Position numbers and translations under genes: made by a program. A DNA stretch of 24,179 nucleotides. Origin: a virus (taxonomy: Duplodnaviria > Heunggongvirae > Uroviricota > Caudoviricetes). The stretch is taken from the IMG/VR virus record IMGVR_UViG_2711768048_000001; one strand, written 5' to 3'. This document shows positions 13,743 through 21,095 of this stretch, piece by piece; position 1 is the first letter of the stretch, and the number at the start of each line of letters is the position of its first letter. The notes beneath the pieces are model-generated. The model saw only the letters and a program-made list of their open reading frames with translations, ran no database searches and was not told the origin of the DNA.

Positions 13743-13791
13743 GATTCTTCACCCGTCAGAACAGGGGGCGCGGTTCCGCGCCCCTGAGTGA

Positions 13792-14997
13792 TCACGCCGC
13801 TGCAATCTTCAGCAGTTTGATGGCCTGCGAATCGACCAGCATCCCGCCGGTGCGCTTGGTGGTATAAAAACCGACAAACGGTTTATTGGTGTACGGGTCA
13901 CGCAGAATGCGGGTGCCGATACGGTCAACGATGGTGTAACCCCGTTTGAAGTTACCAAATGCAATGGCTTTCGCATCAGCGGCGATATCCGGCATCTGTT
14001 CGTTTTCAGCGATACCGTAACCCGCCAGAGAGGACGGCTGCCCCAGTTCCAGCCCCGGACGCCACAGATAGTTACCCTCGCTGTCTTTCAGCAGACGGAT
14101 GGCAAACAGGCTGTTGTTGTTCATCATGAACTTCGCGCCAGTGCGGTGTGCCTTACGCAGCGTGTAAATCAGTTTGATAATGGCGTCTGCGGTCACCGCG
14201 GTCGCTTCGCCGGATACAATATGCTGAAGTTTGCCGAACGCCCGGACCTTGTCGGTTTCATCAGTGGATTCATACGCCAGGAACCCTTTCGGCTTCTTGG
14301 TGCCATCGCCTGAGGTAAAGGCAATTTCTTCCTGTTCGGCAAATTCGGTTGCCAGCTCGCTGTTGATCCAGGCCTCCACGTTGAAGAAGGCATCGTCCAG
14401 CATTTTCTGGGTAGCCTGCGGGTTGCCGTAGATTTCCCCCATGAGAGGTTCAATCAGCTCCAGTCTGGAGGTGGCAGTCTGGGATCGCGTATCCGTTTCC
14501 CCCACCCATCCGGAAGCCGTACCGCCCAGATTCACCAGTTTTTTGTAGTCGGAACCGCCAACGGTGATCACCGTGGCTTCCTGACGCATCACCACTTCAT
14601 CTTTCAGCAGGTTAAGAATGTTGCGATCCAGTTCTTCCGGCACGGCGTAGCCACCGTCTTCATCGGTACCCACCTGCAATGCCTTACGCTCCAGATCGCG
14701 CAGACCGTCTTCACGGCCTTTACGCAGGAAGCCCACAAACGCCTCTTTATGCTCGGTGGCCAGTTTATTTTGCGCTCCACCTGCCGGACGTTTCAGCTCA
14801 AGCAGCTCTTTTTCAAGGTCGCTTTTGAGATTTTCCAGCTCGCTGAGTTTCCCGTTCAGGGTTTCCACCTGCCCGGCAAGCTTGCCTTTTTCCTGCTCAA
14901 TCGCATCCACGCGCTTGTCGTTCTTTGCTTTGAAGTCGTCAAACTTCTGCTGCAGCTCCTGCGCGACCTGTTCGACATCTTTAATATCAACCGCCAT
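13792..14997 (-). CDS. Major capsid protein, HK97 family (with N-terminal coiled-coil delta/scaffold domain)
   Basis: 401 aa; the first ~100 residues are strongly coiled-coil (…KLSELENLKSDLEKELLELKR…), followed by an HK97-fold-like body; directly downstream of the prohead protease. Confidence 0.8.
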   Translation of the reverse strand: MAVDIKDVEQVAQELQQKFDDFKAKNDKRVDAIEQEKGKLAGQVETLNGKLSELENLKSDLEKELLELKRPAGGAQNKLATEHKEAFVGFLRKGREDGLRDLERKALQVGTDEDGGYAVPEELDRNILNLLKDEVVMRQEATVITVGGSDYKKLVNLGGTASGWVGETDTRSQTATSRLELIEPLMGEIYGNPQATQKMLDDAFFNVEAWINSELATEFAEQEEIAFTSGDGTKKPKGFLAYESTDETDKVRAFGKLQHIVSGEATAVTADAIIKLIYTLRKAHRTGAKFMMNNNSLFAIRLLKDSEGNYLWRPGLELGQPSSLAGYGIAENEQMPDIAADAKAIAFGNFKRGYTIVDRIGTRILRDPYTNKPFVGFYTTKRTGGMLVDSQAIKLLKIAAA

Positions 14998-15011: not shown

Positions 15012-15659
15012 TTAGAAGTTCAGATTTTTCAGTGCATTCAGTGCAGAGCCCACATCCTCAGCGTCGCGCAGGGACAGTGCGCCATAGCCCCCGGCCATGA
15101 ATGCTTTGGCCTGGGTACGGGAGAGTCCGACATCACGCAGGACTCTTTCGATTTTTTTCTGTTCGGGGATTTCCCCGCGGGCCAGTGCGTTCTTGACGTC
15201 GCTGATCCGCGCCTCGTCGTTAGACGGGAACGTCACCAGGCTGACTTCCCAGAGGTCGATTTCTTTCAGCAGAAAGGCTTCTTTGCTCCGGTCGTATTCC
15301 CAGTCTTTCAGGACGTACCCAATAGAAAGGCCGGTTAACGAACCGGCCTTCATGTGTGCATGTGCGCGTTTTGCCAGGGGATCATCATCAATAAGCAACC
15401 GTCCCCTGACGTAAAGCCCGACATCGTCTTCCTTCATTTCGGTGTAAACACCGATGGGTTCATCCATGCGGTGCTGCCAGAGCAGTGCAGGTAACGCTTT
15501 TCGGTCACTCCACGCCCGCAGGGAAGCAGCAAATGCCCCGGACATCACCACATCATCGTGGCTGTCCTTTACACCAAAGACGGAGCCATACCCTTCAAAC
15601 TCACCGGAGTCACTGACAGATTTCAGACTCAGCGGTACATCAAGACGTTGTTTCGTCTG
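15012..15659 (-). CDS. Prohead maturation protease (HK97 gp4 family)
   Basis: The track ORF runs 15012..15698, but the ATG at 15659 (MQTKQRL…) has an AAGGA ribosome-binding site and the ATG at 15698 has none. Sits between portal and capsid genes. Confidence 0.7.
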   Translation of the reverse strand, partial: QTKQRLDVPLSLKSVSDSGEFEGYGSVFGVKDSHDDVVMSGAFAASLRAWSDRKALPALLWQHRMDEPIGVYTEMKEDDVGLYVRGRLLIDDDPLAKRAHAHMKAGSLTGLSIGYVLKDWEYDRSKEAFLLKEIDLWEVSLVTFPSNDEARISDVKNALARGEIPEQKKIERVLRDVGLSRTQAKAFMAGGYGALSLRDAEDVGSALNALKNLNF

Positions 15660-18821: not shown

Positions 18822-19316
18822 TCAGATTGTCAGAAACGGGTTAGTGGCTTTCTTCTTCCCCGCCAGGCCAATCAGACGCTGGCGGCTGCTGGGGTCGAGT
18901 CCGAGCATTGCCCCCGTGCTGCTCATCTCGGACTCCTGTTCTTTTTTGGCGGTCAGCTCCGGATTTTTGACCATGCCACCCATTGCACCGGTGATGGTGT
19001 TACCCTGTCTGGCAATATTTTTCACGGCACGTCGCCAGAACTCATAGGCCACACACCACCGCTCAAGTACCGCCAGGTCAGTCACGCACAGCAGGCCCTG
19101 ACCGCAGAGTTCTTTGGTTGTCAGTTGCCACATGATCGTGGCGAGAGGGAGATCTTCTTCAGCGAACCACTCCGGTGGCTCAACACCTTTGATGGGCGTA
19201 AAAACAGGTTCATCTTTATTCAGGGCTCGCTTGCCGGGGTTTCCGGCCAGCGCCTTGCGCGCCGTTGGCTTGGGGCGACGCCCGGAACGCCCCGCCGTTC
19301 CAGCCATATGCGGCAC
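18822..19316 (-). CDS. Terminase small subunit (P27 family)
   Basis: Start is probably the ATG at 19307 ([14 protein letters not shown]…); the track ORF begins at a GTG at 19316. Basic N-terminus, immediately upstream of TerL. Confidence 0.75.
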
Positions 19317-19357
19317 TCCAGGTTAAATTTCATTTTTCGCGGGTATAAAAAAACGAT

Positions 19358-19406
19358 GGGGCGGGCAGTCCGGAAGACGTCAGGTCACAGAGATTTGACC
19401 CGCCCC
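19358..19406. other. Candidate cos region: inverted GGGGCGGG repeats flanking a 33-bp spacer that contains GACGTC
   Basis: ggggcggg at 19358..19365 and its reverse complement cccgcccc at 19399..19406, in the HNH-terS intergenic region where HK97-type phages place cos; an A-tract lies to the left. Confidence 0.35.
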
Positions 19407-19432
19407 TCCCCTCAGGCAGTTGAGAATCATTA

Positions 19433-19783
19433 TCACTTCAACCGTTCACGGGCCGTCTTCGCCTTATGACACGGCCAGCACAGACTCTGCAGATTACAGT
19501 CGGCATCAGTGCCGCCATGCGCTTTAGGGATGATGTGGTCAACGGTTTTCGCCTCACGTACCACACCACCACGCAGACATAACTGACACAGGCCTTTGTC
19601 ACGCTTCAGTACACGTTCACGGATAGCATCCCATTTCGAACCGTAGCCGCGCTGATGACGGGACTGGCCTGGCTTGTATTGCCTCCAGCCTTCGCTTTTG
19701 TGGCTTTCGCAGTAGCCTGACGGGTCTGTGGTGGTATGGCGGCAGCCACGAACACGGCAGGCTTTTGGGATTCGTGATGGCAT
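19433..19783 (-). CDS. HNH endonuclease (packaging-associated)
   Basis: C-terminal HNH motif (…TVDHIIPKAHGGTDADCNLQSLCWPCHKAK…) plus an upstream Cys/His cluster. Likely start is the ATG at 19783 with a GGAG ribosome-binding site; the track ORF extends to 19882. Confidence 0.8.
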   Translation of the reverse strand: MPSRIPKACRVRGCRHTTTDPSGYCESHKSEGWRQYKPGQSRHQRGYGSKWDAIRERVLKRDKGLCQLCLRGGVVREAKTVDHIIPKAHGGTDADCNLQSLCWPCHKAKTARERLK

Positions 19784-19870
19784 ATGTACTCCAATGAAGA
19801 AGCCACCGACATAGCCTCCTCCATTCATCGTGAAACTATTTTCATCTACCCAGTAATGAATTCTTTGTAG

Positions 19871-19925
19871 AGTTGTGATCAATACAACTCACTAATGGAG
19901 AGGCTTGTCCAACACGTTGGACAAG
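19871..19925. repeat. Two adjacent perfect inverted repeats (gagttgt-N7-acaactc and cttgtccaac-ac-gttggacaag)
   Basis: Read directly at 19871..19891 and 19904..19925; no convincing U-tract on either strand. Confidence 0.6.
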
Positions 19926-20005
19926 TTTCCTGTTTGATTTACTGGACACTATAGAAGGACAGAATGCCTTCATCACTCGAATAACATCAATTAAGGAGGT
20001 TCAAC

Positions 20006-20128
20006 ATGTTTCATTCCACAAATCATCAGGCTGTAATTATGGCTGCATCAGCTTGTGCCACAGACCTTTTCCGCTTCACTTTGAGCCTGATTCATTTCTA
20101 CCTGACCGGCTCGCCTCTATCTTTTTAA
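20006..20128 (+). CDS. Small hydrophobic ORF (40 aa) with a consensus Shine-Dalgarno sequence, unknown function
   Basis: AAGGAGG at 19993..19999, 6-nt spacer, ATG at 20006. Translation MFHSTNHQAVIMAASACATDLFRFTLSLIHFYLTGSPLSF. Same strand as bor and upstream of it. Confidence 0.4.
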   Translation: MFHSTNHQAVIMAASACATDLFRFTLSLIHFYLTGSPLSF

Positions 20129-20308
20129 TCCCCGCTTTATCCAAATTGCATTGCCAGAATGCCGACAACAGACTGACATTCAAATCCTGACTACCTCCAA
20201 TAGTCTGACCGTACACCTATATAGTTTTAATTTTCATCAATCCATTTAACTATCGTTTAATTGTTGTCACATAGGATTCTGCCGTTTTTAACAATGCAGG
20301 ATAATAAG

Positions 20309-20602
20309 ATGAAAAAAATGTTGTTTTCTGCCGCTCTGGCAATGCTTATTACAGGATGTGCTCAACAGACGTTTACTGTTGGAAACAAACCGACAGCAGT
20401 AACACCAAAGGAAACCATCACCCATCATTTCTTCGTTTCGGGAATTGGACAGGAGAAAACTGTTGATGCAGCCAAAATTTGTGGCGGCGCAGAAAATGTG
20501 GTTAAAACAGAAACCCAGCAAACATTCGTAAATGGATTGCTCGGTTTTATTACTTTAGGCATTTATACTCCGCTGGAAGCGCGGGTGTATTGCTCACAAT
20601 AA
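20309..20602 (+). CDS. bor: Bor lipoprotein (lambda Bor / Iss family, serum-resistance moron)
   Basis: 97 aa MKKMLFSAALAMLITGCAQQTFTV… with lipobox LITGC; close to lambda Bor as I remember it; convergent with Rz, as in lambda. Confidence 0.9.
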   Translation: MKKMLFSAALAMLITGCAQQTFTVGNKPTAVTPKETITHHFFVSGIGQEKTVDAAKICGGAENVVKTETQQTFVNGLLGFITLGIYTPLEARVYCSQ

Positions 20603-20613
20603 TTGCATGAGTT

Positions 20614-20631
20614 GCCCATCGATATGGGCAG
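20614..20631. terminator. Hairpin between the convergent bor and Rz genes (possible bidirectional terminator)
   Basis: tgcccat-cgat-atgggca; overlaps the last Rz codons; no strong U-tract. Confidence 0.25.
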
Positions 20632-20633
20632 CG

Positions 20634-21095
20634 CTATCTGCACTGCTCATTAATATACTTCTGGGTTCCTTCCAGTTGTTTTTGCATAGTGATCAGCCTC
20701 TCTCTGAGGGTGAAATAATCCCGTTCAGCGGTGTCTGCCAGTCGGGGGGAGGCTGCATTATCCACGCCGGAGGCGGTGGTGGCTTCACGCACTGACTGAC
20801 AGACTGCTTTGATGTGCAACCGACGACGACCAGCGGCAACATCATCACGCAGAGCATCATTTTCAGCTTTCGCATCAGCTAACTCCTTCGTGTATTTTGC
20901 ATCGAGCGCAGCAACATCACGCTGACGCATCTGCATGTCAGTAATTGTCGAGTTCGCCAGCTTCAGTTCTCTGGCATTTTTGTCGCGCTGGGCTTTGTAG
21001 GTAATGGCGTTATCGCGGTAATGATTAACAGCCCATGACAAGCAAACGATGATGCAGATAACCAGAGCGGAAATAATCGCGGTTACTCTGCTCAT
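20634..21095 (-). CDS. Rz: Rz i-spanin
   Basis: 153 aa, essentially the lambda Rz sequence ([48 protein letters not shown]…). Confidence 0.9.
20693..20875 (-). CDS. Rz1: Rz1 o-spanin lipoprotein, embedded in the +1 frame of Rz
   Basis: 60 aa [47 protein letters not shown]… with a lipobox and proline-rich region, as in lambda Rz1. Confidence 0.85.

Follow-up and report, generated by a model that had tools for sequence, protein, structure and literature searches.

What is the function of two adjacent palindromes in the late region of a lambdoid prophage, between the gene for an HNH endonuclease and a small open reading frame (ORF) that is followed by the lipoprotein gene bor/iss? We addressed this question in 24,179 nucleotides (nt) of DNA from a tailed phage (Caudoviricetes; IMG/VR record IMGVR_UViG_2711768048_000001), and this whole stretch is hereafter referred to as the window. 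In a preliminary description, the palindromes, here called hairpin 1 (hp1) and hairpin 2 (hp2), were regarded as more likely to be protein-binding sites than simple terminators. We consider it probable that they are parts of a plus-strand cassette at approximately 19870–20128, which is antisense to the late operon, is built from elements of the Autographiviridae type, and would be read by the RNA polymerase of an invading phage. The order of the elements is as follows: hp1 overlapping with a T7-type promoter, hp2, a K1-5/SP6-type promoter, a leader with a strong ribosome-binding site, and an ORF of 40 codons.

Predicted phage polymerase promoters and hairpins in the window

Both palindromes are present. 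hp1 is the inverted repeat GAGTTGT-N7-ACAACTC with 7-bp arms and the loop GATCAAT at 19870–19890, beginning one base to the left of 19871, the start first given, and the core of hp2, CTTGTCCAAC-AC-GTTGGACAAG, is located at 19904–19925. The gap between hp1 and hp2 was measured as 13 nt, where about 10 bp had been noted. In dinucleotide-shuffled sequences, inverted repeats with perfect arms of 10 bp or more around a loop of 0–8 nt occurred 0.28 times per window and at least once in 20% of the shuffles; hence hp2 by itself is merely mildly unusual. Hairpins with 7-bp arms are common by chance (23 were observed in the window versus 9.4 ± 3.4 in the shuffles), and hp1 by itself is therefore not significant. 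No Rfam family matched the window at the gathering score, and at E values up to 10 only chance-level matches were obtained in 19300–20700.

A sensitive blastn search of 50,697 phage records with 19790–20010 as the query gave short and almost perfect matches in virulent podophages. The right arm of hp1 coincides with positions −13 to −7 of a T7-type promoter on the plus strand (19880–19902, −17 to +6; CAATACAACTCACTAAT followed by GGAGAG), with +1 at G19897. Promoters of the T7 group are characterised by a 23-bp consensus from −17 to +6, the core CTCACTA, G at +1, and a match to the promoters of a known phage. The sequence CAATACAACTCACTAATGG in the window agrees at 21 of 21 positions with an annotated promoter of phage FE44 and is close to the phi9 promoter of Yepe2. 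Indeed, 19877–19897 (ATCAATACAACTCACTAATGG) is identical (21/21) to sites in the Berlinvirus-group phages FE44, 285P, PP74, and BSP161. The FE44 counterpart, CAATACAACTCACTAATGGGACA, is annotated there as a phage-specific promoter, and Yepe2 phi9, TAATACAACTCACTAATGGGAGA, is near-identical (24/26). The pattern occurs once in the window versus 0.01 occurrences expected. The designation of 19880–19902 as a predicted T7-group (Berlinvirus-type) phage RNA polymerase promoter is well supported. Relatives differ in the left arm of hp1, whose conservation is poor; this arm may be incidental or may form an upstream insulator hairpin. We compared 20 distinct variants of the hairpin region from 250 fetched loci (31–33 variants of the block 19784–20080). 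hp1 was perfect in nine of the 20, and its fifth pair goes from TA through CA to CG.

A second promoter, of the SP6/K1-5 type, lies downstream of hp2 on the same strand (19937–19957; ATTTACTGGACACTATA followed by GAAG), with a predicted +1 at G19954. In the SP6/K1-5 group (Molineuxvirinae), promoters follow ATTTA-NNN-GACACTATAGAAG, in which positions −12 to −10 are phage-specific, and are repeated upstream of the genes of the phage; 19937–19957 carries this pattern. The SP6 promoter consensus is ATTTAGGTGACACTATAGAAG, and the K1-5-type site fits it. Furthermore, the sequence of 19937–19957, ATTTACTGGACACTATAGAAG, is identical at 21 of 21 positions to four intergenic sites of phage K1-5 (12580, 14590, 22852, and 39265), all of which are on the coding strand and 67–100 nt upstream of a gene. 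The pattern was found once in the window versus an expectation of 0.02. The corresponding copy in Shigella phage SfIV reads ATTTAGGTGACACTTTAGAAG. Among 31 prophage copies, the specificity positions vary, −12 to −10 being CTG, GGT, ATG, or CTT. The site is therefore referred to as a predicted exact K1-5 consensus promoter, a designation that is well supported.

hp2 itself also has counterparts in podophages. Together with its flanks (GGCTTGTCCAACACGTTGGACAAG), it is identical (24/24) to a hairpin that is present in 5–8 copies per genome of Klebsiella SP6-like podophages, and the same hairpin is found in Pectobacterium phage POP72 and in K1-5. The podophage copies lie after genes and before promoters. 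In S16c, they are just 3′ of genes, and the first directly follows the RNA polymerase gene, 9 nt before the promoter-like sequence AATTGTGGCGAGTATAGAAC. In KpnP_VR702 and Salmonella phage Kenya-K30, the hairpin follows the stop codon and is about 15 nt ahead of ATTTAGGGGACACTATAGAAG. The hairpin at 14557 of K1-5 likewise follows a stop codon, 11 nt before the 14590 promoter, and this layout is that of hp2 and the second promoter in the window. The spacing between hairpin and promoter is thus 11–15 nt in K1-5, KpnP_VR702, and Kenya-K30.

Variation among the prophage copies was examined for pairing. In hp2, pairing is kept through double changes at three pairs (TA>TG>CG, CG<>TA, and AT<>CG), and the single-sided changes in the hairpins are all transitions that retain wobble pairing. 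One prophage stem variant, TTGTCTCAC..GTGAGACAA (TCTCAC/GTGAGA), agrees with the type of hairpin that each E. coli Vectrevirus phage has in 5–8 copies. Because the stem variants match alternative podophage hairpin types, the apparently compensatory changes correspond to those types.

On the plus strand, G·U pairs lengthen hp2 to 13 pairs at 19900–19929. When transcripts were folded from G19897 (+1), all variants formed a 15-bp hairpin with one bulge, which starts at +1 or +2 and has a folding energy of −15 to −24 kcal/mol; this fold resembles the phi9 leader of Yepe2. The extension of hp2 pairs only on the plus strand, since hp2 folds as the leader that starts at +1 of the T7-type transcript (a stem-loop at +1 to +35). 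hp2 is therefore described here as an SP6/K1-5-like intergenic hairpin copy, and it is best read as an RNA element of the plus strand.

It had been stated that neither palindrome has a convincing U-tract. This holds for hp1, at which no U-tract is present on either strand, and for the minus strand at hp2, but only in part for the plus strand, where the 13 pairs of hp2 (five of them G-C) are followed by CTGTTTGATTT, and a consensus scan calls the structure terminator-like. The tail CTGTTTGATT passes a lax scan, although it is interrupted and variable among copies. The U-rich spacer between hp2 and the second promoter (TTTCCTGTTTG, 19926–19936) together with hp2 resembles a weak intrinsic terminator. 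As to the placement of such a terminator, no plus-strand gene lies upstream of hp2; the plus strand there is antisense to the HNH gene.

The small open reading frame, its relatives, and the genomic setting

The second promoter is followed by a leader and the 40-codon ORF (MFHSTNHQAVIMAASACATDLFRFTLSLIHFYLTGSPLSF) at 20006–20128. A Shine-Dalgarno sequence, AAGGAGG (19993–19999), is located 6 nt ahead of the ATG and is kept in the variants. A weak 5′-terminal stem-loop of the SP6-type transcript, GAAGG-ACAGAATG-CCTTC (hp3, 19954–19971), is possible; its fold is no better than those of shuffled sequences (z = −0.75), and A>G changes in its left arm give G·U pairs on the plus strand.

The N-terminal half of the predicted peptide is variable, and its C-terminal LSLIHFYLTGSPLSF is almost invariant. 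Both E. coli and Klebsiella have relatives of 38–40 amino acids that share this C-terminus. Among the variable sites of the last 15 codons, we counted 10 synonymous and three non-synonymous ones in the plus-strand frame, and the 10 synonymous sites occupy second codon positions in the antisense Rz1 (spanin) frame. These counts demonstrate purifying selection on the 40-codon ORF. The ORF was initially taken to be spurious in view of the non-synonymous changes in its N-terminal half, and this view was reversed by the codon-position analysis and the Klebsiella relatives. Furthermore, the ORF is absent from podophages, tblastn giving matches only in temperate phages; a captured podophage gene was rejected on this basis. 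We accept the ORF as real because of its relatives of 38–40 amino acids, the synonymous variation at its C-terminus, and its restriction to temperate phages. Considered more broadly, the relatives have 37–40 amino acids and grand average of hydropathy (GRAVY) values of 0.45–1.5, and the Klebsiella form has a hydrophobic stretch of about 19 residues. A short ORF with a hydrophobic segment and under selection is what a small membrane toxin or abortive-infection effector would be predicted to have, and the sequence of this ORF shows these properties. It is plausibly a small hydrophobic protein that acts as an abortive-infection or interference effector, which is the least certain step of our interpretation.

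The same architecture was observed in other prophages. Carriers include Lambdavirus PDP110P1, prophage loci of E. coli (L258 and L259) and Klebsiella (L261), and phage ST13-OXA48phi12.5. Their elements are arranged as a hairpin, a T7-like promoter ATTAAGACTCACTAT(T)(G)GGAAGG, hp2, an S16c-type promoter, a KP34-type element, AAGGAGG, and the small ORF. The KP34-type element is found just after the RNA polymerase gene in more than 100 KP34-like Klebsiella phages. The ORF of the carriers encodes a hydrophobic peptide of 37–40 amino acids and overlaps the end of the Rz1/LysC gene or its relic. Their packaging modules are unrelated, being of the lambda type or, in two E. coli prophages, composed of TerL, DUF2280, and metallopeptidase genes. 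The architecture is also present in prophages of Klebsiella pneumoniae and in Klebsiella temperate phages, and the gene for the Klebsiella peptide was found in 563 indexed blocks of the assembly collection. The promoter types of the carriers tend to fit podophages that infect the same host genus. Among the HNH-anchored loci, 21 of 126 contain the cassette, always in the orientation opposite to the late genes; given this fraction and the varied packaging genes, the cassette is tied neither to HNH nor to a packaging type. Sequence comparison establishes the podophage identity of each element, their common orientation, and the recurrence of this architecture in unrelated prophages whose promoters have other specificities.

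As to conservation, 566 of 5426 complete E. coli genomes (~10%) contain the 541-bp block that extends from HNH to bor, SfIV carries the region at 85% identity without bor, and the pairing of hp2 is retained.

Two further observations were made on elements of this kind. In the Klebsiella prophages L262 (3010–3387) and L260 (3010–3387), an ORF of 125 amino acids lies downstream of the cassette, on the same strand and at the position of bor; it has no Pfam or PADLOC match. Three tandem units of about 120 bp, each ending in the exact T7 consensus promoter TAATACGACTCACTATAGGGAGA, were found in L275:540–1240 (IMGVR_UViG_2869936548_000004), L285:5520–5860, and L306:3600–3700. These units directly follow an integrase-like ORF and are followed by A/T-rich short repeats (ACTTAAAG/ATTAAAG), which recall those beside the T7 terminal repeat, and then by insertion sequence elements. 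The L275-type element has the appearance of a further integrated element that makes use of T7 RNA polymerase, possibly a satellite-like one.

The window contains the late region of a lambdoid/SfIV-like prophage, whose late genes are on the minus strand in the order Q, holin, endolysin, Rz/Rz1 (20634–21095), HNH (19433–19783), P27-family small terminase, large terminase, portal, head genes, and Mu-like tail genes. The cassette points away from the HNH endonuclease gene (phrog_144, E = 2e-44), which belongs to the packaging module and is on the minus strand. The bor/iss lipoprotein gene (20309–20602, plus strand; missing in SfIV) lies downstream of the cassette on the same strand. A relic of an SfIV-type o-spanin (Rz1/LysC) gene, corresponding to its 3′ end, lies on the minus strand at 20076–20216 (phrog_3001, Rz-like spanin, E = 9.6e-9). 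It runs antisense across the 3′ end of the small ORF; the full-length gene in SfIV and L120 encodes 113 amino acids. The relic adjoins a complete lambda-type Rz/Rz1 and is very highly conserved, apparently because the small plus-strand ORF overlaps it.

Two coding explanations of the hairpin region were rejected. An N-terminal extension of HNH through hp1 (from TTG at 19882) is broken by a 1-nt insertion or deletion upstream of the HNH ATG in one clade, and a minus-strand ORF of 44 amino acids across both palindromes has no family match and would have its protein altered by the stem changes.

Several structures of the neighbourhood were recorded in addition. In many related prophages (including L120:1455–1490), a canonical intrinsic terminator of the late strand (...GGTGGCTTTTTTATTGGAG...) directly precedes the HNH Shine-Dalgarno sequence, and 19793–19826 of the window, GGCTATGTCGGTGGCTTCTTCATTGGAG, is a degenerate late-strand terminator with four G·U pairs on the minus strand. 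In L120:1150–1476 (also L116 and L109), the cassette and HNH are separated by an inserted moron of about 325 bp, which comprises a stem-loop/AATAAT motif, a late-strand ORF of 64 amino acids rich in cysteine, and a canonical terminator. A recurrent stem-loop with a covarying stem and a conserved loop (e.g. GCAGGCATTCATTGAGTGTCTGC), directly followed by GATAAT, AATAAT, or GACAAT, was found at L010:1440–1500, L011, L009, L062:1340–1400, L116/L120:1150–1200, and L012:1390–1440. In other HK97-like prophages, this stem-loop precedes HNH or small morons encoded on the late strand, and it could serve as the promoter/operator of a moron or as an RNA element. Two other strong palindromes are present in the window at 13765–13784 and 15327–15350; one of these is a G+C-rich hairpin with 9-bp arms that closely follows the major capsid gene on the minus strand, and the other is a palindrome with 10-bp arms within the prohead protease gene.

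Proposed function and alternative explanations

Since the prophage encodes no single-subunit RNA polymerase, the cassette would be silent in the lysogen, and its natural reader would be a superinfecting podophage, whose RNA polymerase would transcribe it. In T7 biology, the phage polymerase is still active after host transcription has been shut off. hp2 would serve as the 5′ leader stem-loop of transcripts from the T7-type promoter; with its U-rich tail, it would also form a hairpin ahead of the second promoter and may stop stray read-through by the host polymerase. The small hydrophobic protein would be the likely output and could abort the infection or impair it.

In its full form, this proposal amounts to a "polymerase trap": an array of promoters, each specific to the polymerase of one virulent T7-, SP6-, or KP34-like lineage, would be placed before a silent gene for a membrane protein, so that the invader's polymerase would itself express the effector and the infection would be aborted or blunted. 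We put this forward tentatively, as a possibility to which we give somewhat less than an even chance. The variation of the specificity positions and hairpin types would fit a tracking of local podophages. If the proposal is true, prophages detect a whole family of virulent phages through the specificity of its polymerase, which is hard for a phage to change without rewriting all of its own promoters. A transcription-based trigger would be added to the known modes of infection sensing, in which the invader is recognised by promoter specificity and not by a protein or nucleic-acid ligand, and this would be a new sensing principle. It would also account for a conserved non-coding block shared by many Klebsiella prophages and about one tenth of the complete E. 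coli genomes, and would identify an unannotated conserved protein of 38–40 amino acids. Furthermore, it would be relevant to phage therapy with K1-5-, SP6-, T7-, and KP34-like phages, because lysogens with matching promoters might resist them.

Several observations weigh against the interpretation as a cassette read by an invader. Its proposed function is deduced from sequence identity alone. The T7-type site in the window begins with GGAGAG rather than GGGAGA. Conserved core positions of the promoters are changed in some of the 31 copies (−6 A>G in six, −3 A>G in four, SP6-type −2 T>C in three, and −5 C>G in three); therefore, promoter function is not uniformly preserved. A variant with AATGG has no exact podophage match in the phage collection. 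The N-terminal half of the ORF varies mostly non-synonymously, the window peptide is only moderately hydrophobic (GRAVY 0.67), and the ORF has no family match in Pfam, PHROG, or PADLOC. The single-sided changes of hp1, which give C·A on the plus strand, are G·U on the minus strand and are compatible with a structure of the late mRNA, and the further hairpin at 19793–19826 pairs with its four G·U on the minus strand; both hairpins agree better with a minus-strand RNA. Transcripts would also run on, antisense into the lysis genes or into bor, and the true output could accordingly be an RNA or a downstream gene. Finally, a scan of 19300–20700 detected no sigma-70-like promoter, but this negative carries little weight, because the bor promoter region escaped the scan as well.

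Among the alternatives, a recombination fossil survives best, and even this we judge unlikely. Intergenic podophage DNA would have been captured at co-infection and would hitch-hike without function in the prophage. Such an origin is consistent with the mutated core promoter positions, the imperfect hp1 in 11 of 20 variants, the variants that lack an exact podophage match, and the location at a mosaic junction where morons such as bor were inserted. It does not readily explain how elements of Studiervirinae and Molineuxvirinae came to be joined in one orientation before a prophage-specific ORF that is missing from podophages. Nor is the purifying selection on that ORF expected of a fossil, or the presence of the cassette in about 10% of complete E. 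coli genomes, or the recurrence of the architecture across unrelated prophage families and genera that have different promoter sets.

It is quite unlikely, in our estimation, that the invader's polymerase reads the cassette for a product other than the small protein, namely antisense RNA over the lysis genes, downstream cargo (bor/iss or the 125-amino-acid ORF), or a decoy hairpin RNA. Single-subunit polymerases read through most host terminators. Transcripts would continue into Rz1/Rz/R/S in antisense (SfIV) or into bor (window), plus-strand genes lie downstream in L260, L262, and L258, and hp2 is identical to an element that is repeated in podophages and may be bound by a factor of phage or host origin. 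The downstream cargo, however, differs between carriers or is absent; what all of them have in common is the small ORF, which is preceded by a strong Shine-Dalgarno sequence and is under selection.

A role of the hairpins in the minus-strand late mRNA appears improbable. According to this explanation, they act in the untranslated spacer of about 290 nt between the spanin and HNH genes, in stability, processing, or translational control of HNH, and the podophage similarity is secondary. The G·U pairs formed on the minus strand by the hp1 changes are in its favour, as are the late-strand terminators directly before HNH in many related prophages. Moreover, folding of the alignment retains hp1, hp2, and the 19793–19826 hairpin on the minus strand and predicts pairing of the HNH Shine-Dalgarno sequence there. 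Left unexplained are the exact podophage identities of 21–24 nt and the plus orientation that the elements share with the Shine-Dalgarno sequence and the ORF. The same cassette also stands upstream of unrelated packaging genes without HNH, and the hp2 extension pairs on the plus strand only. A put-like antitermination RNA or other late-mRNA structure on the minus strand was demoted to this minor place after the podophage identities had emerged.

As for the roles first suggested, the view that the palindromes are more than simple terminators holds in that they are conserved regulatory features, the right arm of hp1 being −13 to −7 of a phage-polymerase promoter; operator, packaging, and recombination roles were not borne out. 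Searches for half-sites and hairpins revealed no second copy of hp1 or hp2 in the 24-kb window. Operators are expected in several copies beside an early promoter and a repressor gene, whereas the palindromes are single and are situated among the late genes, where the lysis genes give way to the packaging genes. The deposited SfIV genome ends 58 bp past the HNH stop codon, and cos is therefore placed near 19375 of the window, inside the inverted repeat 19358–19365/19399–19406. This perfect, G+C-rich 8-bp repeat (GGGGCGGG/CCCGCCCC) probably marks cos, which would lie between the HNH and small terminase genes. The small terminase of HK97 binds +15 to +29 from the cut, and recognition lies within −80 to +472 (PMC11331095). 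The palindromes, described at first as close to cos, are about 500–550 bp from the presumed cut, beyond HNH, and thus outside the HK97-type recognition region. Because of this distance and the lack of co-variation with the packaging module, a packaging or cos site was rejected. Consequently, although hp2 is a perfect palindrome with 10-bp arms that is conserved in podophages and could bind a dimeric protein there, we regard double-stranded DNA sites for a repressor, terminase, IHF, or a recombinase as extremely improbable, given the single copy of each palindrome, the distance from cos, the occurrence independent of packaging-module type, the single-sided changes that are all wobble-retaining transitions, and the location outside the immunity and attachment regions.

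Comparison with known systems

A description of such cassettes was not found in full-text literature searches, which included exact sequence strings. The individual elements are of known kinds, and their assembly in a prophage before a conserved small gene appears to be undescribed.

The late units of the T7 group (T7 phi10, Yepe2 phi9, and FE44 phi4.3) consist of a 23-bp promoter, a leader stem-loop from +1 GGGAGA, and a strong Shine-Dalgarno sequence. The cassette resembles them in that its promoter equals that of FE44 from −17 to +2, its leader hairpin starts at +1 or +2 with a bulged A as in Yepe2 phi9, and AAGGAGG is strong. It differs in being located in a temperate lambdoid/SfIV-like prophage without a single-subunit polymerase, in having a prophage-specific ORF, and in being fused with elements of another subfamily. 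With the intergenic junctions of SP6/K1-5-like phages (K1-5 14557–14610, KpnP_VR702, Kenya-K30, and S16c), it shares the same hairpin, the spacing of 11–15 nt, and the exact K1-5 consensus promoter. The podophage hairpin, which may be a terminator, a 3′ stabiliser, or a processing site, follows a gene on the same strand, whereas no such gene lies upstream on the plus strand in the window.

Type I toxins such as Hok, TisB, and Ldr are small membrane-active peptides. The ORF of 37–40 amino acids, its hydrophobic stretch, the strong Shine-Dalgarno sequence, and the structured leader are reminiscent of them; in contrast to these toxins, no antisense antitoxin was identified for the cassette, sequence similarity is absent, and the window peptide has only moderate hydrophobicity.

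Morons of lambdoid and HK97-like phages (bor and lom) were reportedly described by Juhala and colleagues in 2000 as autonomous units of promoter, gene, and terminator between late genes. The cassette is likewise a small autonomous unit in the same hot spot between lysis and packaging genes and is oriented as bor. Unlike morons, which have host sigma-70 promoters and are expressed in the lysogen, it has promoters for foreign phage polymerases, and the scan detected no sigma-70 promoter in it.

The satellites P4 and phage-inducible chromosomal islands have promoters that respond to transcription factors of the helper phage. In both cases, a resident mobile element would read the transcription machinery of another phage. 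These satellites exploit the helper in order to spread, whereas the cassette is part of a complete prophage, would be aimed at unrelated virulent phages, and has no link to packaging.

In the suicide systems of lactococci, a phage-inducible promoter drives a lethal gene, and the promoter is fired by a phage activator of the host polymerase. These engineered, phage-triggered systems, which are listed in PMC5745470, are the nearest concept. The proposed arrangement of the cassette is alike in that a lethal or interfering gene would stand behind a promoter fired by a factor of the infecting phage. Unlike the man-made lactococcal systems, the cassette is natural, and its trigger would be the invader's own polymerase.

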